Of a stretch of 64,000 nucleotides of DNA, positions 2,131 to 61,271 are shown in pieces. Made by a program: the position numbers and the translations under genes. Position 1 is the first letter of the stretch, and the number at the start of each line of letters is the position of its first letter. Below the pieces are notes generated by a model that was not told where the DNA came from, did not search any database, and was given only the letters and a program-made list of their open reading frames with translations. The stretch covers positions 438,581 through 502,580 of the forward strand of contig BCKZ01000003.1 in assembly GCA_001600815.1 (NCBI GenBank), read 5' to 3'. The DNA comes from Alloascoidea hylecoeti. Taxonomy: Eukaryota.

Positions 2131-3339
2131 ATGTCACCAGTTCCATCAGAAGCTCTTCAAAATCTTTCAATTTCAAGTGGTCATGGTACTATTAACGTGG
2201 ATCCAGCTGCTAGAGTTAAGAAAATAGCAGGATCTAATTCATCATGGATTGAAAAACTTCCAGCTCCTACAAGAGCTAGATTTGAAAGATATAATGTTGA
2301 TTTATCTAAAGGTTATCCAATTGGTAAACAAGCAAGTGATATTCCAATTTATTTAGATGAAGCTTTAAAGATTCGATCAACACCTTTAGAAGTTGTCGAT
2401 AGAGGAACATTTGCAGATCCAGAAAAGAAAGCATTGTTTGGAGCAGCAAAAGAAGTTATTGATTTAACAAAACATATTGGAACTGAAATTGTTGGATTAC
2501 AATTATCAGAGCTTTCAAATAAACAATTGGATGAACTTGCTTTATTGATTGCCGAACGTACTGTTGTTTTTTTCCGAGATCAAGATTTATCACCACAAAA
2601 ACAGTTAGAAATAGGGAAATATTATGGTCCTGTTGAAATACATCCATCAGCCGCATATGTTCCTGATTTACCAGGAGTTGAACTTATTTGGCCTGAATAT
2701 ATTGCTAAAAATATAGAAAAACAAGCTTTCAAACAACTAATTAGTCCATGGCATACAGATCTAACTCAAGAAATCAATGCACCAGCAATTACTCATTTAC
2801 ATAACGATACAATTCCTTCTGTCGGAGGTGATACTTCATGGGCATCTGGATATGGAGCTTATGATAAATTATCTCCAGCATTTCAAAAGTTTTTAGAAGG
2901 CAAGAAAGCNGTTTNNAGATCTGCNCATNGTTATNTNGANAGGNATGATCCACTTTCTGGACCAAAACATATTGAAAGAGAACATTATCTTGTCCGTACA
3001 CATCCAGTCACAGGNTGGAAATCTTTATTTGTTAATAGAAAGTTTACAGTTAGAATTGTTGGATTGGAACCAGAAGAATCTCGAATAATCTTGAATTATT
3101 TANNTGATATTTACGAAAAANNNCTNGAAATTCAAGTCAGATTTAGATGGCAACCAACCAAGCCTGGACTTGGAACCTCCGCATTATGGGATAATCGAAT
3201 TTCTCAGCATGCTGCCATTTGGGATTATGAAAATGAAGAGCCTAGGCATGGAAATAGGGTCACAACATTGGGCGAGGTTCCTTTTCTTGACCCTAACTCT
3301 ACAGGAAGAAGGGAAGCTCTTGGGTTATCAATTGATTAA
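2131..3339 (+). CDS. JLP1: Alpha-ketoglutarate-dependent sulfonate/taurine dioxygenase (TauD family)
   Basis: 402-aa ORF with IGTEIVGLQL, the WHTD HxD iron motif, GGDTSWAS, HPVT and WDNR..QH..R motifs. Contains ambiguous n bases. The symbol is a family-level call. Confidence 0.9.
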   Translation: MSPVPSEALQNLSISSGHGTINVDPAARVKKIAGSNSSWIEKLPAPTRARFERYNVDLSKGYPIGKQASDIPIYLDEALKIRSTPLEVVDRGTFADPEKKALFGAAKEVIDLTKHIGTEIVGLQLSELSNKQLDELALLIAERTVVFFRDQDLSPQKQLEIGKYYGPVEIHPSAAYVPDLPGVELIWPEYIAKNIEKQAFKQLISPWHTDLTQEINAPAITHLHNDTIPSVGGDTSWASGYGAYDKLSPAFQKFLEGKKXVXRSXHXYXXRXDPLSGPKHIEREHYLVRTHPVTXWKSLFVNRKFTVRIVGLEPEESRIILNYLXDIYEKXXEIQVRFRWQPTKPGLGTSALWDNRISQHAAIWDYENEEPRHGNRVTTLGEVPFLDPNSTGRREALGLSID

Positions 3340-30636: not shown

Positions 30637-33600
30637 TTAATTTTTTTTAAAGCTGTTCTCTGTTATACCTGATTTTTCACACATTTGTGAAAATACTGAA
30701 TTTTTATCTAAAAATAAGTTTAACGGAGTATCAAACTCTTGAATCCCACCATTATCAAGCACCATAATTCTATCATAGTTTAAAATTGTTCTCAACCTAT
30801 GAGCAATACATAAAATTGTACAACTTGAAAATTGATTACTAATTGCATCTTGGATTTTTATATCTGTTTCATAATCCACTGATGAAGTTGCTTCATCCAA
30901 AATTAAAATTTTAACTTTCTTGATAAGTGCTCTAGCTAAAGCAATTAATTGTTTCTCACCAAGACTAAAATTACTTCCACCATCTTCAACAATTTGATCG
31001 AGATGAAATTTATGAAGACTTTTCGTGTCGATTTTACCATCTATTTCTTCAACGTTTTGTGATCTCACATATTCGAAGGTTTTTTGATCCAATAAGTTTC
31101 GAATAGAATTCCATAATTCATCATCTTCGAATTCATTGAAAGGATCTAGATTTGTTCTTACTGTACCTAAAAACAGCGATGGATCTTGAGGAATAACAGC
31201 CATTCGAGATCTCAGTTCATACAGGCCAATAGTGGATGTATCAATATTGTCGATGATTATTTTACCTTTACCAATCTCTGTCAATCGATACAAAGCACTC
31301 ATAATGGTAGATTTACCGGCTCCAGTTCTACCACAGATACCAATCTTTTCATGTGGTTTAATTTTAAATGACAGATCATGTAATACAAACGGAAGGTTAG
31401 CTCTATAATTAAGAAAGACATTTTCAAATTCAATAGTTCCCACCTCAGGCCATGAATCCCTAGGCTTCGTATCTTCAATATGATAGGCTGCTTCTGATTT
31501 TAATTCAAATCCGTAAAAGTACAGTCTTTCTACCGACACAAAGCAATTTTGTAACTGTGTCAGGGATCTGATTATCATTACCAATAAACCACCAATTTGA
31601 GTTATATTTGAAAGAAGCAAACCAGTTGAAGATGCACTTATTTTGAAAACACTATTAACACAGAGAATAGCAACTAAAAATGATAAAAATGAGGCTAATA
31701 TATCAAGACGAAGAGATAACCATCTTTGATTTGAAGTTGTTATAAAATATGCAGAATTCATGTCATTAATCAATTTACAATTTTTTTTTTGAAATCTTTC
31801 TTCTTGATGAAACCCTTTAACTGTATCAATACCAGAAATAGTTTCAGTTAAGTTACTGTAAACAAGGGATCTATTCAATGATTCTAAACGTTTAACTTCC
31901 CTTGATGACTCGATATAGTATTGAAAATATGAGTAGTATATTATAAAAAATATTGGGACACAAATAAGAATCCATGGAAGATAAACTGCTGCCATTATTA
32001 AAGTACCTAAAACATTGAAGGAAGAATTTATAACCATTTTAAGCATTTCAGTTAACTCATTATCAGCAACATCAGTATCTTTAGTAAATCTATTAAGAAT
32101 CCTTCCAACAGGTGTTACATCAAAAAATGACATCGGAGAGTAAAGAATGGATTTTGCGGCTTTTCTATAAAGATTCAAACTAGAGCGATTAAACACTAAA
32201 TTTTTAAAATTAAAATAAACAAAAAGGTTAATAATAATAGAACCATTTGAATGAAATTTTCAACTTACAATATGAGGCAAAATAATATGCACAAAAAACA
32301 AAAACCGAAGAAAGAATACCAAACATAACATAAATACCAATATAACCGCCAGAAGATAAATCGTACCTTCCACTAGTCCAAAAACTCAGCCAAATGCTAC
32401 TAAAAAGTTGAACAAAATTTGATAATGATGATAAAAACACCAATATAACAAGTGCAAAATAACCCATATCCCCACTACCAAGTAGAAAGAATTTTTTATA
32501 AATTTCATTTGAAATTGAACCTTCATCTCTATCTTCTTGCTCAATAAGTTGACCATTAGCCAATCCTTTATATCTAGCGTTTTTGACTTCTTTTTTATCT
32601 TTTTTTGTAGTGTCGGTATGATTAAGGATATCGAAATCGTTTTGATTTTTCTTTTCCTCTTCAAGTTTTTTCTTCTCTTCTTCATTATATCTATTAATAT
32701 TACTTTCAACTAATATTTTAAATTCGGGTAGCTTCTCAAATAGAACTTCAGGTTTATCAAAATGAACTTGCTTATCATTTAAAAATATAACCTTATCAGC
32801 ACTATTGATCAAGGATAACTGATGAGTTGCCAGAATTCTTGTTTTATCTTTCAAATAACCTAAGATACATTCTTTCACGATCTTTTCACCAACTGTAGCA
32901 TCAACAGCACTTAAAATATCATCTAATAATATAATATCATGATTTGAATAAACTGAGCGTGTTAAAGCAACTCTTGCCTTTTGACCGCCTGATAAATTAA
33001 CACCACGCTCACCAATTTCAGTCATATCACCAGCAGGTAACATATCAAGATCGTCATTTAATTGACAAACATCAATTACAGTATTGTATTTATCTTCGTC
33101 AAATTCAGAACCAAAAGTAATATTCTCACGAATGGTTGTGTTTTGAATCCAGGGATATGAACAAAATACTAATTTACCATCGGTTGATAAATTTCCCGTT
33201 GTTTTCTTCATTAATCCAGCCATTGCGTAAAGAAGACTCGATTTTCCGGTACCAATGGAGCCAGTTAGAATTATGAACTCTCCCTTTTTAATTGATAGTT
33301 TAATGTTACTGAGACCTACAAAATTTGAAATTTCAGGATTCTCATGCTTTTTCTCGTCTGAGCTATGATCAGAAGGAGGGACATGGATTTCGTTGAGATC
33401 ATCAGGTTTTGAATGTTTTTCATTTTCTTCATCTTTAGCTTTCTTTTTCTTAACAAGTTCAGCTAAGAAATCTCTACTTTCTGTTTTCTTTTTTTCTTCT
33501 TCTGTTGCCGTTTCCCAAATAAATGAACCGTTTTCAATCACAATTGCATTATCACCAATATTTTCGTGACCATGTTCAGGCTCTGTTTCACTTTCTTCAG

Positions 33601-34975
33601 CTTGTAAAAATAATGATATTCTATCAAAAGCCACTAAACCATCAGCTGTTGTGGCAATACTCATTGGTAGCATCATCAATGGTAGCCTAAACATATTGAA
33701 AAGAGTCAAGGATGAAAATATATTTGCCGGATCAAGACCTCGACCTGTTTGAGACATCACAACAAATGATAGCATTGCTGCTATAATTGGAATACAATTA
33801 ACCAAAGCATTGATAAAATTTCTTAAACGCTGTAATTTTAAAATAATATCCATTTCATTGGTTCTGATAGATGATAAGATCTGATCGAAGGCTTCTTCCC
33901 AAGCATAAAATTTAATCATTTTCATGGAGTTTAAAACTTCATTGACTGTAGTTACTCTTTTATCGGTATACTTATTAATTTTAACTCTTAGTTCTATAAA
34001 ATTTGAAGCATTAATAACAATACATAGTAGTGCAACAATAACAACCGCAACTCCGACAAGTGCTGATGGACCCAAATTGACTATCAGTAAAGCAATTGTA
34101 ACGGCAACGGCAACTGGAAATGTATAATTAAAGTGAAATAATTCAAAGGCAAAATCCAAACGTGATAAATCTGCACCAACTAATGTTGATATTTTACCAT
34201 TTGTGTAAATTGTTCTTGAACGATTAGATAACTTCATTGATTTTTGATACATGACATTTGTTAAAACAGATCTAACCTTTGCACCAGTTAACATCGAATT
34301 ATAAAATGAATGATTCATCGTAAATGCTAAAGCAAGAATCATTCCAATTAAACCAAAAGAATATCCAATACCTTTACCTATAGGATATTTTTCAGGATCT
34401 ATTAATCTTCCTTCAACGAATGAAATAAGCTTTTTTGTGACAAGTGACTGTAAGGTTTGACCAACATCTGTTAAAGCGATAAGTAATCCACCAATCCAAT
34501 ATCGTACCCCAAAAGTGTCACTTACAGAAAATAACAATACAGATTTTGGTATGTCTAAATCTTTAATTTGTTCTTCGGAAAGCCCTTGTTTCCGCTTTTT
34601 ACTAAGATATTTTTCAGTTCTATTTTCGTAATTTTTAAGAAATCGTTCTGACATATGCTCTACGGAGATATCTCCATCCATGATAAATAGGTCCGTATTT
34701 TCCAACCTTCTCATAAATCCAACCCTAACAATTCCACCAACCCATGAAAACATTAAGTAAGAGTACCAGCTTGGTCTGGGAAACGAAACGGTTCTTTTTT
34801 CAGGAACAGGAGGAGGCTTCCCTATAAACTTTGCCAAACATCTTGATATTAAATTTCTTTTTGCCTTTGTGGTTTTAGATTTCTTATCAGGGTTTGACTC
34901 AATGTCCTTTGAGTCCGTATCCGTTGAACTAATCTCTTTTATAGCTACATTTCCAGAATTGATGGATTTTGCCAT
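30637..34975 (-). CDS. YOR1: ABCC/MRP-type ABC transporter (Yor1-like); exons 34975-32269 and 32195-30637 (1421 aa)
   Basis: Two NBDs (GSIGTGKSS/LSGGQKAR and GRTGAGKST/FSLGEKQ). Intron 32268-32196 (GTAAGT...TATTAAC...TTTAG) joins the two track ORFs in frame (SY-L-FNR). Confidence 0.9.
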
Positions 34976-48320: not shown

Positions 48321-51300
48321 CTTAAGATTTAGAATTTTTCGCAAATATCTCAGATCTGTTATATTCTTACAGGGAAAGGTAAGAATCTGGGGAAATTAAC
48401 CCCCTTATATATAAAATCAATTAAATCAGTTTCAGTAAAGTTCAATAATTAAGTTAAAATCCATTATTTATTTATACATTTAGTTATGAATTTAGAGTTC
48501 CGGCGTAAGCTAGGGTGTATTACGTCACACAGTCACGGGTGATACTGATTACAATTAGTAGTAGAGATCTGCACACACTTTTACATTATTTTTTATTCCC
48601 AATCCTCTATTGATTCAAGCTGAAAATATAGAATAGTTTTTGAAGAAAAAGACCCTGGATGGTTAGAATGTGTATGCATAATTCGGATAATTACATGTTA
48701 TTCAGTTCTTCCTTTTCCTGTATTTGGAACCTGCATTTCAAAACGTCCCCAAATCTAGATTTTGCCATGTGGGGTAATCTATAAATGACCTATAAAATTT
48801 TTAATATATTACCACAACAAACCCCTTTAAAATTACGTAGCTTTTGGAATGTTAAATATGCTTCATAAAATATGATTGGCTGGGAAGAATTCCTCAGCTG
48901 TACACTGTTTTATATATATTTTATTGAAAAAAATGATTAATATAGTATGTGGAATACATCAATTGTATAAGATTATATAATCTTAATGTGTAACTCATAA
49001 TTTCAGATGGTATATAACCTTATGCTTATCAAAAAAATAATTCAGAGAATTTCATGATCGATTTTTAATTACATATTAATTAAAGTAAGAGTTTGTTTCA
49101 AATTTCATCCTTAAGTATCAAATCCAACAATAAACTTTCAAGCTAGAGAAAATTAATCAATTATAATATGGCTATATGATTTTTCATACTGCACATCAAG
49201 AAAAAATATCAGCTATCGGAACTTTAATATTGATATTAAGTTTTGTCGTATATGTTCATGCATAATAAGTTAGCAAACTGTTAGAGATATATATTCCATA
49301 AGGAGTACTAGTAGAACAGGAAATTGAACCAGAAGTTTTAAATTAAAAGAAATGAATTGAAAATATTTATAGAAACAAACCGGTTTTCAGAAATGCATTG
49401 TTAAGAAATAAATTTGCAGAGGCGCCAGCGGACACCAATATATTAATTTCTGTATTATTAAACGATCTTATCCACTGGTATTAAGCCTTCGAAATGAAAG
49501 GCATTGATACTTACTAATCAATATATAAAGGAGAAAAAGATCATCAATTATGTTAATACCTCTTTCATAAAGGAAAGCTGTATTGCTATTTATATCTAAT
49601 AAGAATGATAAATCCGTATATGCATATATGATCCATCATTTGCGTTTCATGTGGTAATTTATCCCCATAAGTACAATGTAAGCATTTAAGCTCACTATGG
49701 CTATTGGCTTACAATAGCTTTGGGAATTAAATAGCGATCATCCTCAAAAATTTATTTATTGAATTGTTTGAGGTATCATTAACGGTTTGTCTACCATATA
49801 AGTTTTTTTTAAGTCATCAATGTTTCACACAGAAGAAAAGAATAAACCTCTTGATAAGTTTTATTTGAAATCTCATCGAAACATTAATTATTTTTGACTA
49901 TTTGAAGTGTAACTCGGTTGACTACAGGGAAAAAATAAGATCTCGCTCATTTGGTAGGAGTAGGTCATTCCTATCCCGATACTGGGTTTTTAATGAAGCC
50001 AGGCATATACTGCGAGACGCGTTTAACTTCATTCCAAAACAGTTCAACTATAAACATCTGATATGGCTATTAGAGAGAGGTTTCAAGGAGGGATTAATTC
50101 AAAGGTGTACATGTGTACATGTAAATATATCAATTGCGAAGAAAGTATTATAACGGACAGCCCCACCTTTTATTCAAATTCCAATCTGCAAATCAAGCAA
50201 TTATAACCATAAGTAAAATCAATGGGAACCGCTGTGACTCACAATTGATCTAGTTAGTTACAATGAAAGGTGGTGTCAAGAATGTCAAGAATCGTCTTTA
50301 AGATGTAGGACGACCAGCTAGATAAATCGCTTTTTGACCGATTCATCGTATTCATGGCAAAGCGACAAAAACAAATTGTTGTCACAATCCATATGGAATG
50401 CAACTACTAGAATTTCTTCTAGTGATACTTAGATAGATTAGTGAACTTGTATATTTCCTTGAGAATTAATACTTTATATAATCAAGGTTTTATATCTATA
50501 AATTGTATATTTTTCCGTTTGGGCTGTAAGCCTATAACTTTTACCTTTCCCCATAACTCCTGATGATATGTTATAACTAGTACTATATGGTGGGGGCGGG
50601 GATATAATACTTATAGTTCATGCGGATGGAAGTCGTAAATTTTCATGCACATAATTACAGGCTAAATTAAGTCACATATAACATTCTAGAAATATATTAT
50701 AACGGTTCATCAACCTAACATTAATAAAAATTTAAAAAAATAATTTAAAAATTTTAAATGATCGAATTAGATAATAAAATTAAGCCCAGTGCCCCACGTA
50801 ATCATTAATTAATGTACTTACTTCTGTGGAGCTATAATCAGTTTGTTTTATAATTATTTATTTTATTTAATTTATTGTCAATTTATGTATCTAAGATTCT
50901 AAATCGTTAAATAAATATGCTCAATTCGAGTACGTGCCGGAGGAAGATTAACAATTGCTGTTCCACCGCGTACTGGTACCCGAGGAGTAGAGTGTTTCTA
51001 CTTAATTTTTCGGCTACTTGGGGATTAAATATCCAGCCGTATGTTTAACTAAATCATCGACCACATTGCGCTAGTTTCAGTACAACAGAATCCATAGAGC
51101 CAGCATAAACAATTCGTTTAGTCCCTTTAGCTGTAACAAAACATATGCAGGGGCTACCACCAAATGTAAATGGAAACAGAATAAAGCCACTCGAAAAAAA
51201 TGCCTGGTCGAATATGCAGTTCCAAAAGTTGCTTAATATTTAGTGTAAAATATGACCGAATATTCATTTCCCATGTGACCGAAATTAAGTAGAAAGACTG

Positions 51301-51858
51301 TTATGTGCTGGATAATTACAAGGTGGGGTACTAATTGGAAACCCACATGAGTGGGCGAAAATGTTGAAGCGGAACAATGGAAACAACGGAGTGAGATTGG
51401 AGAAAGTTACAGCTATGTGTATCTAACTACACGTCTACGGAATTGTACTCAGATGATCAGTTAACGTACCCGGATACACAATATTGTTATGTTGCAACCA
51501 CGCAGTACAAAATCAGCAATAACAGATATATTACTATAAATATTAAGTACTATATCACTAAAGTCTAATCTCATGGTTCTGGTAATATTTGTTTAATTTT
51601 CTCTTTTTTATGTTTTGTTGTGGTGTGAAATGTCTTTTACCACTAATCCAATCTCCCCACAACACATTTTTCTTTGTAGGTGAATTATATGTAATCACGG
51701 CTTTCCCCTCTCTTGGATGTCTTAATTATACCTCAAATAGTAGTAACGGAACTTTTTTTCATCCGTACAACCAAATAACATTTTCACTTATATATATAAC
51801 CTAATATTGATTCCGAATTGAAATTCCAGCTATATATTTATATATAGTATTTAATAAT

Positions 51859-51949
51859 TGTTAAAGTTCAAAGTGCCTGTTCTCCCAGTTGCGCCAAAAA
51901 GCCAATCGACTCTCTAGTGAACTGTTCCAAGAGTGTAATATATCCAACA
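51859..51949 (-). repeat. Intact LTR (91 bp)
   Basis: 51878-51949 is identical to 54531-54602 (72 of 72 bp); 51859-51868 (tgttaaagtt) recurs at 52142-52151. Confidence 0.9.
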
Positions 51950-52130
51950 CACCCCCAACCTTAGGCAGGTCACTTTACTAATCGCCATATCTGCTCACGC
52001 CCGTGATCTTTCGAGTTTCGGACTTCTTGCATTTTACTTTCGGGCCATTTATGTGTTACCCTACTAAGCCTCAACTAGACTGATGTAAACTACCATCCTA
52101 CGGCGGACTCGAACCTGTCTCTCGTGACCG

Positions 52131-52141
52131 CGCCGCTACCA
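52131..52141 (-). other. Primer-binding site, initiator tRNA-Met type (TGGTAGCGGCG)
   Basis: Directly follows the LTR-terminal CA on the minus strand; shares TGGTAGCG with the Ty1/Ty3 PBS TGGTAGCGCC. Confidence 0.8.
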
Positions 52142-52149
52142 TGTTAAAG

Positions 52150-54525
52150 TTTTTTTTTTTTTTTTCAAAAAGGCTCTATATTAAACTGCTTTTTCTATAA
52201 ATACTATATTTATAACAACCAAAAAATTGTGAAAATAAAAATACCTCTTACTAATGTTGGAGGTTCACCCATTTGTTGAGTAATGTTGTTACTTTTTATA
52301 GTAGTTTAGATGCATTAGATCATTGGATATCAGATGGCCGGGTTCAAAGGATGAGAATAATTGTGTTATAGCTCTATCGTCAATTTTCTTTTCATAAAAC
52401 ACTTTTTTGGAAAAATATTCAACAACTATATTTTCCATTTCGCAATGGTCATCCGACCCATTAAGTGAGGCTATTTCCATCCTTTTGTCCGATATTTTTG
52501 GAGACGTAACAGGTCATTTAATGATTGCCCTTGAATGTTAGTTTTTGTTATAAGTTGAGCTTTTTCTAATTTATTTTGATTTATGGACCAGACCCCTTTA
52601 TTCTTAATTATAAAAGTCAGTTCCCCCGCACGTTTCTTTATTTCTGATTTTTTAACCATCCAGTTTTTATATGCTGGAAATTTTTCCGCCAATCGAATGT
52701 GTCCTTTATAAATATATCGAACGTTATCAGCATTGGTTAGCAGAGATCGGCTAATGGAAAAGGGTCTATTGTTTTGAGAGAGATTAGAAGTGGGGTTCAG
52801 GTTCATATAGATCGCAAAGTGCGTAGAGTGTTTCTTATTGGATATTGAAGCTTTTGTAAGATCGTTTGTTAAAGATGAGGATATATAAAATTTGTCCAGT
52901 CTTCTGCTTGCTGATAATGCAGATTGGCTATCGGAAATTTGTTTCTTTGTTGGGTTTAGTTCCCGAAAGGAATCGATTAAAGAAAATTGACTCAGAATTT
53001 CTTGTAGTTGACTGACGCCTTGATCTTTAATTCTAGAGGGGATCGAAGATTCGAGAGAAGGTATTTCAACACAGTTGAAATCACCTCCCCATATTAATTG
53101 CTGTTTTGAAACACTTTGGATAAAAGGTTACATTGATTTGAAATATTCTATTCTTTCCATGCTGGTGCATAGTACATAGGAATTTATGATGGTTATTAGA
53201 TTATTTTGATATTCTATGTGAATAAGGGAAGTGTTTGCTTGAAAAATATAGCAAAATGGTTCTTTAATCTTTTGGGCGATAAGTTCCATATTTGGTGTTT
53301 TTATATTTTTGTGGACACATCTTTTAACTAGGATCATAGTCAGGCTTGAATAAACCATCTCAATTTCTATTTCGTGTAGCTGTTTTCGTAAGCTGAGGAA
53401 GTCACAGCCTCGGGTTTCTTGTAATAATAATATTTTTAAATTGTCATTGTGTATAAACCAGTTAATAATTAACGATTAAGTGGATTTTGAGAATCTTCCC
53501 ACATTTTGTGAGGCAAATTATATATACTCAGGTATTAATAATTTAAAGGAGATAGTGGTACATCCCAGGTATTGGACCCTTTTGTATTGTTGAATCGGTA
53601 TTTAATTTATTAATATGAGAACTATTGTTCCCTTTAGAAGGGCTTGAGTGATGACCGCTAGAGCGTAGAATTCTGATATTCCCAGGAGATTTCTCGGGGA
53701 AAATTGAAGGCCTCGCAGGGATATGATTAGAATCATTGAAAATGTTAGATTCTGTTACCCGTTGATTGACAGTAGACGTATGTTCAGGACGATCACTAGT
53801 GTCTGATACAACATCAGAATCCAATGAATCGTTATCAGGGTACCCTTCAGCTTTGGAATCGGTGATATCCATTGCGTCAGCCGCCTCCATTTGGTTTGGG
53901 ATACGAGGATCAACCGTGTTAGATGATGGTAGGCTTAATTGGATGGTTATCTGATTTCAAATCTTCAGCAAAGGCAGCATCTTCATTATCAGAAGAATCA
54001 TCGGTCACGGAATAATCATCCGAGGATTCACTATAGGTGCATCAGTAGTAATGACCGCCATCTTTAACAAGGGGTTCATCCTCTCCTCCATGGGAAGGAT
54101 TTGTACTAACGCGTAAAATGGTAATGAGTTCATTACCTTGATGATAGCGGACGCGTCAGGTCCTGCAAAGGCAACCAGTTGGTCACCTCTGTTAAAGAAA
54201 TAAAGTAATTTGGCCATTTTACCAGTAAGCGTTTTGTCCACCTCGTTTTTAAAGTCATCAATGGTCTTGTTATCAGAGATGATTAGTCTATACGGTAAGA
54301 ATCCGGGTTGTTTGCAGCAACTTCGGCATGGCGCAACATACTATGCACCTCATTAACAATGGGGGCAAAAAGGGGGGCTTTGATCACTGTTTCCCTGTTG
54401 GGAGGGCCAGTGACAAGATACGGTTTAGTTTTAGGTAATTTAAGATACATTTCAAAATTGTTGTCGTTTTTCTCACGTTTTCTTCAAAATAGCCAGCTTT
54501 TTGAGTGAATCAAAGTCAAGAAAAT
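52150..54525 (-). mobile_element. Degenerate L1/Tx1-like LINE derivative: ORF1 remnant, AP endonuclease, no RT, poly(A) tail
   Basis: Frameshifted ORF1 from ATG 54450 to 53543. ORF2 APE motifs in one frame: SQNV, LLQET, GGDFN (53088-53074), IDSFRELNP, RRLDKFY, STH, with in-frame stops. A16 tail at 52165-52150. Confidence 0.85.
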
Positions 54526-54602
54526 CAAAGTGTTCTCCCAGTTGCGCCAAAAAGCCAATCGACTCTCTAGTGAACTGTTCCAAGAGTGTAATATATCCAA
54601 CA
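54526..54602 (-). repeat. Main part of the interrupted LTR
   Basis: Matches 51869-51949 apart from a 4-bp (tgcc) indel. Confidence 0.88.
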
Positions 54603-55546
54603 ATAATTACAATATTTTGTCTGCACATTTTGGTCTAATTGCGTTTCTACGAGATAGCCAGCCACCGTAAACTGTATATTGGATTAAAGTCTGAAGAAGG
54701 TGCTCATCAATCAGGCCACGAAAACGCTTTAGATTAGATAGAAATCTTTGTGAGCCTTGTATTGATAATTTACCATGAAGGATCGATTTTGAGATACAAA
54801 GGTGTTGACAACTTTCGCATATGACATTTGCACTCCTAGTTTCTTATATTCAAAAGCTATGAATATGAGCCTAATATTATGATGGTTATCCTTCATTTGA
54901 GTCCTTCTACGTGCTATTTCAGTCTCTGGTAGTGATTTAATGGTTGTTCTAAAAATGGAACTTTTAAGTTACAATGATATGGAATCCCCTTTCATTTTTT
55001 GGGGGTGGTCTTCCAGAATTTATTTAGATCTTCTCAATTCTCACAATACACCACGATAACCACTTTAAGAGAACATCGACACTATTATTGGATCATATGG
55101 ATATCTATGATGTCAATATGGCAGCTTCCAATTAAACATGCCATAATGAGAAATTGGGTTTTATGAATATTGGATCCACTGAGTTCAATTTAAAAATTCA
55201 AAGAAAAATTTCAAACAGAAAACATTGAACATATATTATCAAATAATGAGATTAAATAGATTTTAGTGACATTATTTATAACAATATATATTTGTCTCTG
55301 GTTTGTAATTCGTGGTTGCAACATAGCGATGTTGTGATATCCGAATATGCTAGCTTATCTGAGTACCATCTACAGTACATCAGGTAATTTCATTCCTGAT
55401 AATTTGCGGCTAAAGAAACGTATATGACAAGAAACATCATTTGTTGTTGTAAGATCATTCTCAATCTCGCTGGCTTTGTTGTCATCTTTACCAATTTTAG
55501 ATTTAGTATGCATATCAATTAATGTATTAAACTTGTTATAGATATC

Positions 55547-57038
55547 TTGATATATACTACAGCTAGATTTATACCTAGGACTGGGAATAGATGGAAAACG
55601 AACACAAAAGCAATAGGATCAATTAAAAGTATACTCATTATACTTTTATATATTGTTGGACTTGGGATCTCTCAATTACTCAGTATTCCCATTCTGTATG
55701 GAACTAATCCTGTGTTCATCTTACCAAACCCAGAATCAGATGAATATGGTGATAAAAATTATGTAAATGAAACGGGAAATTCTCTTTTTAATATCCAATT
55801 TACCAACAGAATGTACCCATGGGCTCATTTTTATGATAAATTTCCATTACATCCTAATGGATTACCTAACAAAATTGATGGATCATTAAGTACTAGTGAA
55901 ATTATGATGGGTCTTTATGCAACGGAAATGGCAAAAAGTTTAGAAATTGAAGAGGAATTAAATACCGAAGAAATATCTTTATACAATCTGTCATCGGCTG
56001 AGCCATTGGCTGAAGCTTTATTCTATCATAGCAATCATTCATTTATTGATACTGGATTTTCCTCAATATTTACAACATATAATAACTTAATTGATACTGT
56101 TCCGGTGCCAATCATTTCAATTCCTAATTCTACATATACTTCAAGAGTATCATCTATGTTCTTAGCTAAGTATGCTAAAGACGGACATCCTAATTATACA
56201 ATTTCTACTATTTTACGCCAATTATTAATAAACAAAGAATATTTTAAACTCGAAACTTATGATCCAAAAAAAAGGAACTACTATAAAATGTAGTATATTG
56301 GAACTTTTGATTTTGGTGATTTACCGATAGAATACGGCTACTCCTAATGTTGATCTATTCAACGGCTCTATTAAAGATAATATATTGACAACCGAAATGA
56401 TTCATTCTTTTGATGTAAAGCAAGCAAATGACACAAATCTTCATTTTGAATTTACTGATGGTTTGATCAACGGTGTTCCATGGCTTGATTTACTCCATAC
56501 CCCATACATGTATACCACCACTGATAATTACTCATTTACTTAACAGACTTTTATCTTTTCAGTTGTGATAATAATGGTGAACATGAAACCTATGTGTATA
56601 ATTTCTCTCCTAGTAATTACTTTGGCACTAATATCACAATAGAAGATTTTGTCAATCCTCTCTTTATTAGATATACTTGGTTACATGAACATAAAACCAT
56701 AAAAGTGGATAAACAACTTATTACTGAGACAAGTGGGTTTTCAAGTAAAGCACTCTATTTGAATCCTATTAATAGGTTCAAAAAGGTATTTTCTCCCTAA
56801 AAATAGCAAGTGTACCAATATTGAGAGCAGATATATCATTCACAATGGACTTATAGCTTTAATGTGCTTTGTTATACTAGTTTGGGTTATAATGTTAGTT
56901 ATTCCTACACTGAAAAGATCATCAACTATTATTTTCGTTGAAGAACAAGCTGAAAAATCTTCGAAATCATTCCTTCATACAATTTTTGCAAAATCAAACA
57001 ACCTTTCAGGTCTTGAATTATTCTCAATTTGGTCATAA
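55547..57038 (+). pseudogene. Disrupted gene for a membrane protein with a large N-glycosylated loop (family not recognised)
   Basis: 248-codon frame lacking an early ATG; coding-like sequence continues past the stop at 56293 through several frameshifts to a second hydrophobic segment (GLIALMCFVILVWVIMLVIP) and a stop near 57038. Confidence 0.55.
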
Positions 57039-57765
57039 GTTACAATTAAATCAGGCCAATATGATGGCAGATGAAAGTGAGAGGATTGTTAATAAATTCT
57101 CATATTGAGCAGAGTGAAAGTCTCAGAATGCAGGCCACATTGCAGAACTTATACATATTCTGCTAATTTGTCGTTGCGTTGATTGTGTCAAAGAACTAAA
57201 TAGAAGAGTGATTTTGATCTAAATAAGACCATCTATATATGTATATTGTAATTAATTATAAGATTACTTGTGTGTTTTACTTGCCATATCCATATTCACT
57301 CTTAATATTAGTCAGTCTATTTTTATTATAACTTAATCCCCATATTGGCGAACAATAAGATGTTGTACAATCAGACCATTTCATATTTATTAAGAGACTA
57401 TTTGTATTTTGTTCACCACAATTTATGTGAGTTCATTACAGTCCAAATGTAGTGTGTTATGCGGACAAATTTTTGATAGCTACGTTTATTTCTTGCCTCT
57501 GGGTCAACTTGTGTGAGACCAAATCAACCCTCCAGGGATGCAATATACCGGCGGTATAGTATTACGTATACATTTAATTACAACCGTGTAAGTTGTGATT
57601 CATTCGCCCTGTACTTGAGTTTTATTATCACCACCTGTAACTGTTCTCTAGCGATCATTAAATACTGTCACTTGCCAATACGAGCTAGTTCATATATAAA
57701 TAAATGATATATGAAGTAGTTTGACAATTTTGTGGAATAGTATTTGATTTCTGATGAGAAGGCTG

Positions 57766-57782
57766 CCCCCCCCCCCCCCCCC
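57766..57782. repeat. Poly(C)17 tract
   Basis: Seen directly in the sequence. Confidence 0.9.
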
Positions 57783-59240
57783 ATTGCACATATTTAAGTC
57801 TTATCAGCGGTAAGTTACTTAATACGTGCCAGAGCTACAAAAACACTCAACTCACTGGAAAACTTGGATGTGCCTTCTTCTAAAATTAATTTAGAGATGA
57901 GGTGAGTCCCCAGATTACATCTATACTTAGCATTAATGAAAACGTGGAATTGGTGAAGCATGGGAACATGCCTCTATGTTTACCAAGTATAGTTTTTCCA
58001 TTCTGAATTCGTTACGTAGATTGCAAGGTTTCGCTTTTTTGGTGTGTGTATTTTAGGCACTATAGATATTATAACTTGGTAAACAAAGTGACCACTTATT
58101 TAGTTATCTTTCTTTAATTTAATTCGTCCCTCAATTCAACATTTGTATGATTGTAGACTAATAAATTCGTAGAGTGAGCTGTTCTGCGACACAGTCACAG
58201 TGTGGCACATAGCTTTCATGTTTGTTCAATTCGACTATTACGTCATATCTAACGAAAAATTTAGGTGTCTCGTTTTAGATGATATATCGCCAAGTCTTCT
58301 TCACACAGAGCTAAACAGGTGTTTTGGTTGATTTTGACATCCGGGAGTTAACGATTCCCGAATTTATACCCTAGATTCTATTGAGTTATAACTCTTTTTT
58401 TGATTTAATCAATTTATTAAAAACTACAAACTATTCGGTTCTTTCAATATTCTAGATAAAAACACATTATCATATTTTGTCAGTGTGTGGACCACTGGTT
58501 TGCCTTCAACTCTCTCCTGAATGCTATCTGTCTATATATGTATACATATATCTAAAAATTTGAGAACAAAAAGTTGTTCTTACACTTTTTCTAATTCATT
58601 CATGTGCTTATACGTGCTATTTTATATTCTAGTGGTGGTTCAGTAGTGGCTGAAAGAAGAGGTACACTTTACAACTTAATTACGAAATTTTATTAAACGT
58701 ATAAAAAAATATAGGATTTAAGTTTATACTACATGTATGTGTGAATTCAAATGTTTCGTGGCTTGGAGCGGCCAAATACTTATAAATCTTCTTATTCTCA
58801 CACCTTACCGATAAAAGTACACCGAAAGTATTGTACAAACTTTAGCTAGGCGCATCCATGATACCATATGATACCCATAAATATAATATCCGGTCAGTAG
58901 AGATACTGAAAAATAGCGTTGAAGTATTGGTAAACTACATCGGAGAAGAAATCTCACTCCACAACAGAAATTACAAACATTATAACTTATATTTAAAACC
59001 CCATTATCAGAATCAAGAGATTAAGCAGATTTTAGTGATATCATAGTATTTAATTTAATTTAATTTAATTTATATTCGTTATTGGTTTAGAAAATCGTGG
59101 TTGAAGTTAACAATTTTTCACGGGTAATGTTACAACTGTAGTTGACACCGTTGACAATAAAAAAATTTCACAAGGAAAAAAAACGTAAATATTATATTAT
59201 GTAATGTCTTATTTAATTATATATATTAATATATAGTAGT

Positions 59241-61271
59241 TTAAGCTAAGTAAGTTGAAGCAGAAACGTTACCTCCTCTTCCAGTCCAGTTAATATGAAT
59301 ATCTTGGCCTTCAGGTAAGTTTTTAGATGCAAACTCTGGTAATACCTTGAAAGTATGAGCACCGAAGTAATCTCTTTGGGCTTGTAGTAAATTAGCTGGT
59401 AGACGAGCAGATCTGTAACCATCATAGAAACTCAAAGCAGTTGAAAAAGCAGGCGTTGGAATTCCCCATAATGCACTAGTTGCAACAATCTGTCTCCAAG
59501 AATCTTGAGCTTTTGTAATAGCATCTGAAAAGAATTTATTGAAAAGTAAATTTTCTAAATCAGGAGTTTCACGATAAGCACTTGTAATTTCACCCAAGAA
59601 AACAGATCTAATAATACAACCTCCACGCCACATCAATGCAATAGCTGGGTTATTTAATTTCCAACCATATTCTTTTGCAGCTTCACGAATCAACATAAAT
59701 CCTTGAGCATAAGAAATGATTTTTGATGCGTACAAAGCTTGTTCTAATTGATCAACAAATTTTTGTTTATTACCATCAAATTTAGGAGTAGGACCAGGTA
59801 GGATGGTAGAAGCTCTAACACGTTCAGGTTTAATTCCAGATAAACATCTAGAAAAGACAGCTTCACCAATCAAAGTGACTGGCATACCAAGATCTAAGGC
59901 ACTAATAGCTGTCCATTTACCGGTACCTTTTTGACCAGCGGTATCTAAAATCTTCTCAACCAATGGAGTTCCATCTACATCATCGTATAGTAAAATATCT
60001 CTGGTGATTTCAATTAAGAATGAATCTAAGACACCTGTATTCCAAGTAGTGAAAACAGCGCCGATTTCCTTGTCGGTAAAACCGGCACCTCTCTTTAATA
60101 AATCATAGGCTTCGCAAATCAATTGCATATCACCATACTCAATACCGTTATGAACCATTTTAACGAAATGACCGGAACCGGCTTCACCAACCCAGTCACA
60201 ACAAGGCTCACCATCTGATTTGGCAGATACAGCTTGAAAGATCTCTTTAATATGAGGCCAAGCATCGGGATGACCACCAGGCATCAAAGAAGGACCATAT
60301 CTAGCACCTTCCTCACCACCAGAAACACCGGAACCAACAAATAGAATTCCTTTGTCATTCAATTCAGTGTATCTTCTATTCGTATCTGGGAAATGTGAAT
60401 TACCACCATCTATGATGATGTCACCTTTCTCCAAATAAGGAAGTAATTGGTTGATAAAAGCATCAACAGCAGAACCAGCCTTAACTAAAAGGATGATACG
60501 ACGAGGACGTTTCAAGTTATCGACAAGTTCCTGGACGGAGTGAGCACCAATGATGGATTTACCTATAATAGGGTTTTTTGAGTTAGGGATGACTCAGACA
60601 AATAATAATATCATAAAATGCATACCTTTTGCTTCGTTATCCAAGAAATGATCAACCTTTGAAACGGTTCTATTGTAGGCAACAACGGTGAAACCATGAT
60701 CAGCGATGTTAAGGATCAAATTCTAATTGGTTTACGGGATTAGTAATTGTAGCAATCTAAAGAAATAAAACCCGCATATATTGACATTGAAGAACGTAAA
60801 AGAATAACGAGATCTAGAACGGCATGATTCTATATAGAAAAAGTATCACTTACTTGTCCCATAACAGCAAGACCAATAAGGCCGATATCTGTAAAAAAAA
60901 TTGTAGATCATGTTAGCAATTGGTCATTTGAAAAGTTAAAAATTGAAGTTTCGACGGCAAATATGAGGCATACCTCCACTATAAAAGAATAAGTTAGTAA
61001 TTTATAGGTATAGAAGATGAGCAGGGAAGACTCAGGGAGTGGGCAATAGAAAATACAAAGCAAGAGAAAGAGGCCAAAGTGACATACACTGGGAGAGGAT
61101 GTAAATGTTGGGCAATTGACTTTACTCTGGTACTTTTGGGATGTTGGCATCAAAGATCATTGGGGGATAAGAACACGACTCTTGGAGACGACTCTTGGAG
61201 ACGACTCTTGGAGACAAGGAAAGGAGGAAAAACAAGAAATGGAGGACTTCTACTTACGTGGGTTCAGACAT
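59241..61271 (-). CDS. GND1: 6-phosphogluconate dehydrogenase; exons 61271-61258, 60978-60974, 60888-60854, 60722-60626, 60562-59241 (490 aa)
   Basis: Spliced N-terminus MSEPTGDIGLIGLAVMGQNLILN; GVSGGEEGA, VKMVHNGIEYGDMQ and QRDYFGAH motifs; four GT-AG introns with branch sites; exons total 1473 nt. Confidence 0.96.
61175..61215. repeat. 13-bp perfect tandem repeat x3 (acgactcttggag) in GND1 intron 1
   Basis: Seen directly in the sequence. Confidence 0.9.

Follow-up and report, generated by a model that had tools for sequence, protein, structure and literature searches.

The locus at 51854-54607 of the 64-kb window (the whole stretch of DNA analysed here) raises the question of what kind of element is bounded by its two short direct repeats, and how a unit of this size could have moved. 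The earlier note had read it as a miniature non-coding LTR element whose 5' LTR is split by a nested insertion, and every feature listed for that structure was re-found in the sequence.

Anatomy of the element and its nested insertion

Read on the minus strand, the order of parts is ATAAT, a split 5' LTR, the primer-binding site (PBS), a 192-nt interior, a G-rich tract, a 91-bp 3' LTR and ATAAT again, with the following features:

51854..51858, no strand: target-site duplication ATAAT, left copy, directly outside TGTT..AACA
51859..51949, minus: 3' LTR (LTR-A), 91 bp, intact, TGTT..AACA
51950..51962, minus: G-rich plus-strand primer tract AAGGTTGGGGGTG (plus strand CACCCCCAACCTT), adjoining the 3' LTR
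51950..52141, minus: non-coding interior, 192 nt, 50% G+C vs 32% for the window
52130..52141, minus: PBS TGGTAGCGGCGC, 12 nt, touching the 5' LTR with zero gap, its complement ending at 52141
52142..52151, minus: final 10 nt of the 5' LTR, reading ...AACTTTAACA in the sense direction (plus strand TGTTAAAGTT), identical to 51859-51868, the first 10 nt of LTR-A
52152..54525, minus: nested non-LTR (LINE-like) retroelement fragment, 2.37 kb, with a poly(A) tail, frameshifted ORFs and no RT, its 5' edge uncertain by up to ~10 nt
54526..54602, minus: first part of the 5' LTR
54603..54607, no strand: target-site duplication ATAAT, right copy, same 5 nt as the left

Without the insert, the unit amounts to 91 + 192 + 87-91 nt, or about 370 bp. 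The reported identity of the LTRs over 72 bp was reproduced in full (51878-51949 vs 54531-54602, 72/72), a perfect repeat far beyond chance, and the 5-bp duplication with TGTT/AACA ends is likewise present as described, the 5/5 match of the flanks having a probability of ~0.002 by our own estimate from base composition. Both edges of the LTR are fixed, because many family contigs of differing flank stop exactly at 51859 or 51949. The split LTR, given earlier as 87 bp, is there, but its exact length is not firm: the inner edge is ambiguous by up to ~10 nt, since the motif ACTTTGA occurs in the LTR and also twice at the 5' end of the insert, so that this LTR carries either a 4-nt gap (87-88 bp in total) or a short target deletion. 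The proposed PBS does adjoin the 5' LTR, but the stretch in common with the commonest family form is limited to 12 nt; similarly, the G-rich PPT lies next to the 3' LTR as claimed, albeit with T's in the tract.

No ORF of at least 60 aa was found inside 51859-52151, with stops in the frame translated. One plus-strand ORF (51586-51804) ends before the element. The predicted fold of the interior was not more stable than that of shuffled sequences (z-score +0.57). BLASTN detected no further LTR copy or remnant elsewhere in the window, where the best local score for the LTR was 25 vs 23-32 for 20 shuffled LTRs.

The insert splits the 5' LTR 10 nt before the PBS and has a 16-A tail (52152-52167, seen as 16 consecutive T on the plus strand). 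The sole relatives of its ORFs are endonucleases of LINE-like elements: the ORF at 52471-53127 has 31% identity to residues 141-261 of protein P0002, which carries Exo_endo_phos and RVT_1 domains, and the only PDB matches were four LINE-1 endonucleases with weak E-values of 0.17-0.57, while Pfam gave no significant family for the six insert ORFs. In the family contigs the insert stood at ~2-3 times the single-copy depth. The view that 51859-54602 is a single element whose interior measures 2.6 kb was rejected, because the second LTR is split exactly at the poly(A) tail and family contigs cross this point without the insert.

The family in public contigs of the same organism

The survey covered public contigs of the same organism from four runs (X1, X2, X4 and X5, the last of low coverage) belonging to three studies. 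By summed depth, a rough measure that adds up unitigs and may count overlaps twice, the LTR position 51914/54567 reached ~23,850 in X1, 1,690 in X2 and 4,150 in X4, and the interior position 52054 reached 1,600, 195 and 143, respectively, against single-copy contig depths of 58-62, 6-11 and 5-11. In these three runs the LTR thus reached ~170-490 times, and the interior 17-27 times, the single-copy depth, with LTR depth ~10-20 fold above interior depth. Such an excess is expected from LTR-LTR recombination leaving solo LTRs. It was absent from X5, whose LTR to interior ratio was only ~2:1 (22-24 plus 4.8 vs 14.3).

The copies are dispersed. Loose ends of unlike sequence (agreement 0.53-0.58) started exactly at 51859 in 5, 5 and 8 records of X1, X2 and X4, and likewise exactly at 51949 in 1, 5 and 4 records, which makes 5-8 different left flanks and 1-5 different right flanks per run. 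A contig of 328 nt in X5 (record 27, depth 14.3) covers 51883-52117, followed by 27 letters of other sequence that close with the PBS complement and by 49 LTR letters from 51859; reading from the PBS complement directly into the LTR, it crosses the point at which the window copy is interrupted. The same uninterrupted PBS-LTR junction recurred at a joint of X2 (side 25) and in loose ends of X1 and X4. High depth of both LTR and interior in the three well-covered runs, varied flanks at both LTR ends and the uninterrupted interior-PBS-LTR junction bear out the earlier proposal of a multi-copy family. With no further copy in the remaining 61 kb of the window, a family of a few hundred copies would require either a sufficiently large genome or clustered insertions. 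A scan with two 22-nt LTR words gave zero matches in the collections of metagenome contigs, viral contigs and prokaryote genome contigs.

The window copy differs from its relatives at several points. After 51951, within the G-rich tract, roughly half of the family depth carries an additional C on the plus strand. The majority contigs align up to 52117 and family copies differ from 52118 on, with the 12 nt of the PBS in common with the commonest form. Both LTRs of the window copy have C at 51914 and 51928, where T accounts for 81% and 85% of the depth of the family in X1; this sharing of minority letters is what copying of both LTRs from a single template would give. The LTR variants listed against the family majority are at sense positions 13, 22 and 36. 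Next to the G-rich tract, the X1 interior was ~3 times deeper than the rest (5,116 at 51999 vs 1,744 at 52011), a step that was weak or absent in X2 (241 vs 216) and 2-fold in X4 (304 vs 152).

Recent mobility, proposed earlier for the family, is not established by this copy: the 72/72 match bounds divergence only loosely, the nested element is itself degenerate, and no empty-site joint for the locus was found among the eight joints listed in the family contigs. The locus is likely occupied by the element in other strains as well. Contigs with its flanks in X1, X2 and X4 reach just 23-28 letters into the LTR, below the 31-letter bridging rule.

Proposed mobilisation in trans and the alternative readings

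With its TG..CA direct repeats, target-site duplication, PBS starting with TGG beside the 5' LTR, G-rich tract beside the 3' LTR and dispersed copies, the unit is built as an LTR retrotransposon, and its size far under 1 kb, short interior and lack of coding capacity are those of the TRIM/SMART type. The window element is therefore most probably one dead copy of a ~370-bp non-autonomous family of this type, presumably primed by initiator tRNA-Met (iMet) and moved in trans. The element RNA would start in the 5' LTR and end in the 3' LTR, with its packaging provided by Gag protein from an autonomous partner, probably one of Ty1/copia type. The minus strand would be primed by the 3' end of the initiator tRNA-Met on the 12-nt PBS and the plus strand at the G-rich tract, after which insertion of the cDNA by the integrase of the partner would produce the 5-bp duplication.

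The predicted iMet primer rests on the implied U72-A73-CCA end of the tRNA: the PBS start TGGTAG implies a tRNA ending in ..CUACCA, with U72 and A73, and an A1:U72 pair marks the eukaryotic initiator tRNA. Set against the complement of this PBS, the initiator tRNA of Saccharomyces cerevisiae has a different base at 1 of 12 positions, a point against this assignment. The only tRNA gene in the window is a tRNA-Thr. The zero-gap PBS and the TGTTG start are Ty1/copia-like traits (PMC4139406), and together with the 5-bp duplication they point to a copia-type partner by generic traits only. No RT, IN or Gag-like ORF was found within 48.4-59.2 kb of the window, and Pfam gave no retroelement domain for 15 ORFs at 49.9-59.0 kb plus the two bordering genes; the only weak match, PTEN_C2 (E 0.0009), fell below the curated cut-off.

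That the structure arose by chance or mis-assembly and is not a retroelement at all is practically negligible as an explanation: the 72/72 repeat, the matching 5-bp flanks and the placement of PBS and G-rich tract each at the correct LTR end, and the recurrence of the LTR edges and the PBS-LTR junction in contigs of all four runs from three studies, all speak against it, and nothing in its support was found. A more serious competitor, possible but on balance rather unlikely, is that the short form is an internal-deletion derivative of a coding Ty1/copia-like element with the same 91-bp LTRs, in which case most of the several hundred LTRs would be solos of that coding element, and the short form a minor hitch-hiker that did not drive the family. 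The large excess of LTR over interior depth in X1, X2 and X4 agrees with this, and the deeper interior beside the G-rich tract in X1 hints at other elements sharing that end; moreover, for the 292-bp SMART of rice relatives the partner put forward is a coding element of copia type whose LTRs measure 76-90 bp (PMC3281118). Against it, the depth step at 51999 is hardly reproduced in X2 and is only 2-fold in X4, the loose ends listed at 51949 are AT-rich flanks and not a second interior, and the short form has been amplified in its own right, since it stands at 17-27 times the single-copy depth.

A further reading concerns transcription and would make the unit a Pol III-transcribed miniature LTR element like the proposed 'TRIMp3'. 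It builds on two motifs:

51885..51896, minus: A-box-like motif TGGCGCAACTGG, at sense positions 54-65 of the LTR, right after a 5-T run (sense 50-54)
52105..52115, minus: perfect match to the B-box consensus, GGTTCGAGTCC, 27-37 nt downstream of the PBS start

Together with a TATA-like ATATATTA at LTR positions 7-14, these would make a promoter with its TATA-like motif and A box inside the LTR and its B box past the PBS, 27 nt into the interior; the transcript would end at the 5-T run of the 3' LTR or at T runs in the flank. With the B box outside the LTR, a complete promoter would exist at the 5' LTR alone. Across both strands of the 64 kb, the strict B box GGTTCGANTCC is matched once (0.04 expected), and this match falls in the element on the sense strand. 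The A-box-like motif is on the same strand, 65 nt upstream from start to start (the boxes of the tRNA-Thr in the window are 43 nt apart), no difference from the family majority is listed inside either motif, the sense strand of the interior has no run of at least 4 T, and TRIMs with Pol III promoters have been proposed (PMC10886601). The motifs were, however, noticed post hoc, and the loose A-box pattern turns up in the window about as often as chance predicts (6 matches vs 5.5 expected). The lack of TTTT is predicted by the composition of the interior, 77% of shuffles also being free of it. ARAGORN found no tRNA in a model of the unit at the default, 90% and 80% settings and one match at 70%, against matches in 54 of 100 shuffles, and Rfam over 51700-52300 with E up to 10 gave four chance-level matches, none of them a tRNA or 5S. 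Pol III could also be stopped early by the 5-T run, which lies past the expected start site and ahead of the A box. We consider Pol III transcription of the unit improbable. The split internal promoter that it entails, for which transcription is predicted only where a 5' LTR precedes an interior, with solo and 3' LTRs silent, is similarly improbable. If true, it would be a new answer to fitting U3, R and U5 in a 91-bp LTR, and no Pol III-type TRIM would have preceded it in a budding-yeast-like genome.

Comparison with known elements and significance

The repeats of typical TRIMs are 100-250 bp long, which puts the 91 bp of the present family at or just under the lower end. Otherwise the preferred reading, a trans-mobilised miniature element, agrees with the definition of TRIMs: two short terminal direct repeats, a short interior with only PBS and PPT, no coding capacity and mobilisation in trans (PMC6934838, PMC10886601). 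A close likeness by description is SMART/FRetro129 of grasses, a non-coding element of 292 bp with 85-bp LTRs (vs ~370 bp with 91-bp LTRs here), TG..CA ends, a 5-bp duplication, PBS and PPT, and solo LTRs of ~80-90 bp; unlike the present family it has a plant host (PMC3281118). It also differs in the share of solo LTRs, with 8 solo LTRs against 27 complete copies in O. brachyantha, compared to the 10-20 fold LTR excess in three of the four runs here, and in having a proposed partner, FRetro64, whereas none was found for the window element in its window (PMC3281118).

The earlier statement that TRIMs are known mainly from plants and animals is true of most described examples, but they also occur in fungi, as Helenus TRIMs, reported from the rust fungi (Pucciniales) and a few Agaricomycetes (PMC10886601). 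Helenus/'TRIMp3' resembles the window element in being a fungal TRIM with a 5-bp duplication, and its sense-strand boxes A and B may have counterparts in the two motifs found here; the size of our element is within the Pol III range of 311-1263 bp discussed by the author. The Helenus LTR, however, contains a tRNA-derived sequence with both boxes, whereas the window element has no detectable tRNA-like fold and its B box lies outside the LTR past the PBS; most fungal Helenus have a PBS for the tRNA anticodon loop, in contrast to the predicted 3'-end PBS here (PMC10886601). Rfam and ARAGORN found no tRNA- or 5S-derived sequence in the LTR of the kind present in Helenus/TRIMp3, the LTR having only the A-box-like motif.

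Ty1 of S. cerevisiae is autonomous, ~5.9 kb long, with LTRs of ~330 bp. It has in common with the window element many solo LTRs, a short plus-strand primer tract rich in G and T and, directly past the LTR, a PBS for the 3' end of the initiator tRNA, a pairing that is predicted for the window element. The TGTTG start and the 5-bp duplication are also common to both (PMC4139406), a likeness in features and not from sequence alignment. Non-coding LTR elements of kilobase size are known in budding yeasts: Tca1, Tca9, Tca10 and Tca13 of Candida albicans (PMC4139406), the LARDs of Scheffersomyces stipitis (PMC8546629) and Ty5.L of Wickerhamomyces anomalus (PMC12711049). They are alike in the lack of gag/pol, in the intact PBS, PPT and duplication and in their presumed trans-activation, but their elements or interiors measure 2 to 5.6 kb (PMC4139406, PMC8546629, PMC12711049). 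The tabulated LTRs of C. albicans are 127-780 bp long with 3-30 copies per family, vs 91 bp and a depth ratio in the hundreds here (PMC4139406).

The family represents a common type of genomic parasite, set apart chiefly by the small size of the element and by a host that resembles a budding yeast. In the literature searched, budding-yeast LTRs are 127 bp or more and non-coding elements are kilobases long (PMC4139406, PMC8546629, PMC12711049), and the one paper retrieved for TRIMs in Saccharomycotina is, by title and abstract, a Saccharomyces genome resource unrelated to TRIMs. Among 47 literature matches for the PBS string and its complements, the 15 listed were unrelated, judging by title and abstract. 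The 292-bp SMART was called the smallest LTR retrotransposon in 2012 (PMC3281118). At 370 bp, with 91-bp LTRs, the present element would rank among the smallest known, and this at a depth ratio in the hundreds within a yeast-like genome that is compact and AT-rich. It would offer a natural minimal substrate for defining the cis sequences that packaging, priming and integration by a Ty-like particle require. LTR finders that assume at least 100 bp miss 91-bp solo LTRs, which matters for annotation. As to the host, a protein atlas pointed only to a broad eukaryotic family, and a homologue search to one distant relative (44% identity across 31% of the query). The gene content of the window, which includes Pet20, Iml1, a MYST acetyltransferase, PTPA and a Gpr1/Fun34 protein, fits a budding yeast.

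Anatomy of the interrupted element and of its insert

Sequence reading of 51600-54900 and a repeat search bore out the anatomy described in the earlier note, a miniature LTR unit with its sense strand on minus, split by other DNA, and delimited the following features.

Features of the locus
51854-51858, + strand reading: left copy of the target-site duplication (TSD), ATAAT
51859-51949, + strand reading: 91-bp LTR unit from TGTT to AACA; 3' LTR on the minus strand
51950-51962, + strand reading: tract CACCCCCAACCTT adjoining the 91-bp unit; AAGGTTGGGGGTG on the minus strand
ending at 52141: 192-nt interior, with the + strand end ..GCGCCGCTACCA
52142-52151, + strand: TGTTAAAGTT, matching the 10 nt with which the 91-bp unit begins
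52152-52167, + strand: run of 16 T
after 52167, + strand: about 2.36 kb of other DNA
ending at 54602, + strand reading: remainder of the split LTR unit, up to AACA
54603-54607, + strand reading: right copy of the TSD, ATAAT

The repeat search found 72/72 identity between 51878-51949 and 54531-54602. On the minus strand the order is 5' LTR, primer-binding site (PBS) TGGTAGCGGCGC, interior, AAGGTTGGGGGTG and 3' LTR, the PBS adjoining the 5' LTR with no gap. ACTTTGA is present within the LTR and again, two times, where the insert begins, which leaves up to about 10 nt of ambiguity at the split LTR's inner edge; therefore, either the second LTR is 87–88 bp long with a 4-nt gap or a few bases were lost upon insertion. 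No coding capacity was found in the interior by ORF listing and translation; its G+C content is 50% against 32% in the window, and its fold was no more stable than those of shuffles (z +0.57). BLASTN detected no further LTR copy or remnant in the rest of the window, where the best local LTR score was 25, compared to 23–32 for 20 shuffled LTRs.

The 2.37-kb insert, oriented on the minus strand, has a terminal 16-A tail and contains several short ORFs frameshifted relative to one another. The longest of them (52471-53127) matched two long Exo_endo_phos plus RVT_1 proteins (E 1.1e-4 each), aligning at 31% identity with residues 141-261 of one of the two, the GDFN-to-SDH half of an apurinic-type endonuclease, and the only solved structures matched were four LINE-1 endonuclease sequences, weakly (E 0.17–0.57). 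No Pfam families were reported in six insert ORFs and no reverse transcriptase (RT) region was found in the insert. Because of the endonuclease-type matches, the frameshifts, the missing RT and the A tail, the insert is, judging from its sequence, a degenerate LINE-like element, truncated or internally deleted. In public contigs its depth was about 2–3x single-copy, and its other copies differed by about 10%. Budding yeasts do not commonly carry non-LTR retrotransposons, and this LINE-like family may merit attention in its own right.

Family copies in public sequencing runs

Four public runs containing the stretch were aligned to 51000-55600: two, from separate studies, were labelled isolates of a single organism, while the other two were wood-decay metagenome samples from a third study. 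Three (X1, X2 and X4) were well covered and one (X5) had very low coverage.

Contig depth in X1, X2 and X4 (values sum unitigs, and overlaps may count twice)
Single-copy: X1 58–62; X2 6–11; X4 5–11
LTR position 51914 summed with its counterpart 54567: X1 about 23,850; X2 1,690; X4 4,150
LTR position 51928 alone: X1 25,084; X2 2,883; X4 3,487
Interior position 52054: X1 1,600; X2 195; X4 143

By these summed values the LTR reached roughly 170–490x and the interior 17–27x single-copy depth. Contigs with unlike continuations ended exactly at 51859 (5, 5 and 8 records in X1, X2 and X4, respectively) and at 51949 (1, 5 and 4 records), shared stop points that define the LTR edges and show many insertion sites. 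Uninterrupted copies, the main test proposed by the earlier note, were recovered in contigs rather than in an assembly. In X5, a contig of 328 nt (record 27) starts within one LTR, crosses the interior, continues with 27 letters ending in the PBS complement and then with 49 LTR letters from the first base, and spans the point where the window's copy is interrupted. The same PBS-LTR junction was present as a joint in X2 (25-letter side) and as loose ends in X1 and X4. The core of the earlier note's interpretation, that a nested insertion hides a member of a TRIM-like family, is supported. In X5, LTR depth was 22–24, with a further 4.8 at the twin position, and interior depth was 14.3, a ratio of about 2:1, so there was no solo-LTR excess in this run. 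If several hundred copies were scattered at random over a genome as large as that of an ordinary yeast, one or two would be expected in the other 61 kb of the window; no other copy lies there, which counts against such a number.

Both LTRs of the window's copy have C at 51914 and 51928, whereas the X1 family depth has T (81 and 85%, respectively); two LTRs agreeing against the family majority is what reverse transcription from one template gives. Compared to the commonest form, the interior of the window's copy showed five listed differing positions and a 14-nt insertion after 52029, and the stretch just inside the PBS also differed, while the 12-nt PBS itself was common to both. Recent mobility, as proposed in the earlier note, would be no more than a possibility for the window's copy: the 72-nt LTR identity limits its divergence only loosely, and the element that inserted into it afterwards has itself decayed. 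Single LTR unitigs at very high depth mean that many copies share exact 31-mers, an indication that the family is not an old one. No empty-site joint was among the eight joints listed, and no insertion polymorphism was seen. The X1, X2 and X4 contigs with the locus's own flanks extend only 23–28 letters into the LTR, which falls short of the bridging rule of 31 letters. The three well-covered runs probably all carry this same insertion.

Mobilization, transcription and related elements

The anatomy, the dispersed copies, the LTR excess in three runs and the inactivating insertion 10 nt from the PBS were observed; the steps of mobilization would follow those established for LTR retrotransposons. 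The RNA would span from 5' LTR to 3' LTR and be packaged by a partner's Gag; a tRNA on the PBS would prime minus-strand synthesis and the G-rich tract plus-strand synthesis; the partner's integrase would insert the cDNA, creating the 5-bp duplication, and LTR-LTR recombination would produce solo LTRs. The PBS start TGGTAG implies a tRNA ending in ..CUACCA. The A1:U72 pair is a mark of the eukaryotic initiator tRNA, the putative primer in this host; in S. cerevisiae the initiator would match the PBS at 11 of its 12 positions. A gapless PBS-LTR junction and a TGTTG start are Ty1/copia-like traits according to a Candida albicans element review (PMC4139406), and because of them a partner of the copia type would be favoured. 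No RT, integrase or Gag-like ORF was found in the gene-poor 48.4–59.2 kb around the element.

Four motifs bear on how the element might be transcribed.

Promoter- and terminator-like motifs, sense strand
LTR positions 7-14: ATATATTA
LTR positions 50-54: run of 5 T
LTR positions 54-65: A-box-like TGGCGCAACTGG
interior positions 27-37: box B-like GGTTCGAGTCC

Transcription by Pol III, of a unit complete only where a 5' LTR precedes the interior, seems improbable. The box B-like motif is a perfect consensus match and the window's only one on either strand (0.04 expected), and the motif geometry would permit a unit complete only at 5' LTR plus interior, with the A-box-like and B-box motifs 65 nt apart, start to start (43 nt for the boxes of the window's tRNA-Thr gene). 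However, the A-box-like pattern is common in the window (6 found against 5.5 expected), the promoter-like motifs were noticed post hoc, Rfam found no tRNA-like sequence, and relaxed ARAGORN did no better than with shuffles, 54 of 100 giving a hit at the same threshold that first yields one in the element. Furthermore, the run of 5 T is positioned where Pol III could be stopped, and the interior's composition accounts for its having no TTTT. There is a modest chance that the element is a new Pol III-type variant.

The element fits the TRIM class (PMC6934838, PMC10886601), and its closest match in form is the grass SMART FRetro129, with 292 bp, 85-bp LTRs, a 5-bp TSD and solo LTRs of about 80–87 bp, whose proposed copia-type partner has 76–90-bp LTRs (PMC3281118). 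The Helenus TRIMs of rust fungi and some Agaricomycetes are described as having tRNA-derived sequence within the LTR and mostly anticodon-loop PBSs (PMC10886601); the defining tRNA-derived LTR was looked for in our element and not found. Budding-yeast non-coding LTR elements thought to be mobilized in trans, namely Tca1, Tca9, Tca10 and Tca13 of C. albicans (PMC4139406) and the LARDs of S. stipitis and W. anomalus (PMC8546629, PMC12711049), are, in contrast, kilobases long, and the 34 C. albicans LTR families measure 127–780 bp (PMC4139406). None of the openly licensed papers and preprints inspected describes a TRIM in Saccharomycotina, though one may be in print elsewhere.

Surroundings of the locus

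An inverted repeat with diverged arms of about 175 nt (51442-51616 and 55205-55369) brackets the whole locus. The arms show 71% identity by BLAST and 79% mean column identity in alignment and would be about 830 bp apart if the retroelements were removed. These flanks had about 2–4x single-copy depth, and several joints of the 'opposite strands' or 'skips' type involved 51522-51599 and 55067-55302. The insertion site of the miniature element may itself lie within a different repeat of low copy number, perhaps a foldback or a unit resembling a DNA transposon. The gene-poor 11-kb stretch (48400-59200), flanked by genes for a sugar transporter and for 6-phosphogluconate dehydrogenase, includes a row of short + strand ORFs without significant Pfam family (55523-57105) and sub-threshold Pfam matches in four ORFs (ETR1_N, Otopetrin, PCI and PTEN_C2, the last in the minus-strand ORF 55373-55618); a decayed gene or further remnants of repeats may lie there.

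In the 6-phosphogluconate dehydrogenase gene (59241-60593, minus strand) the frame is open for 450 aa stop-to-stop, the longest ATG ORF has 347 aa and the NAD-binding domain begins at profile position 37; the gene start may be in an upstream exon. Two adjacent minus-strand ORFs of 915 and 498 aa within 30637-34975, 94 nt apart and each with ABC_membrane and ABC_tran domains, may together make up one full-size ABC transporter that a frameshift, an intron or an error in sequencing has split. Sixteen scattered N letters are present at 2910-3126 within a TauD-family ORF.
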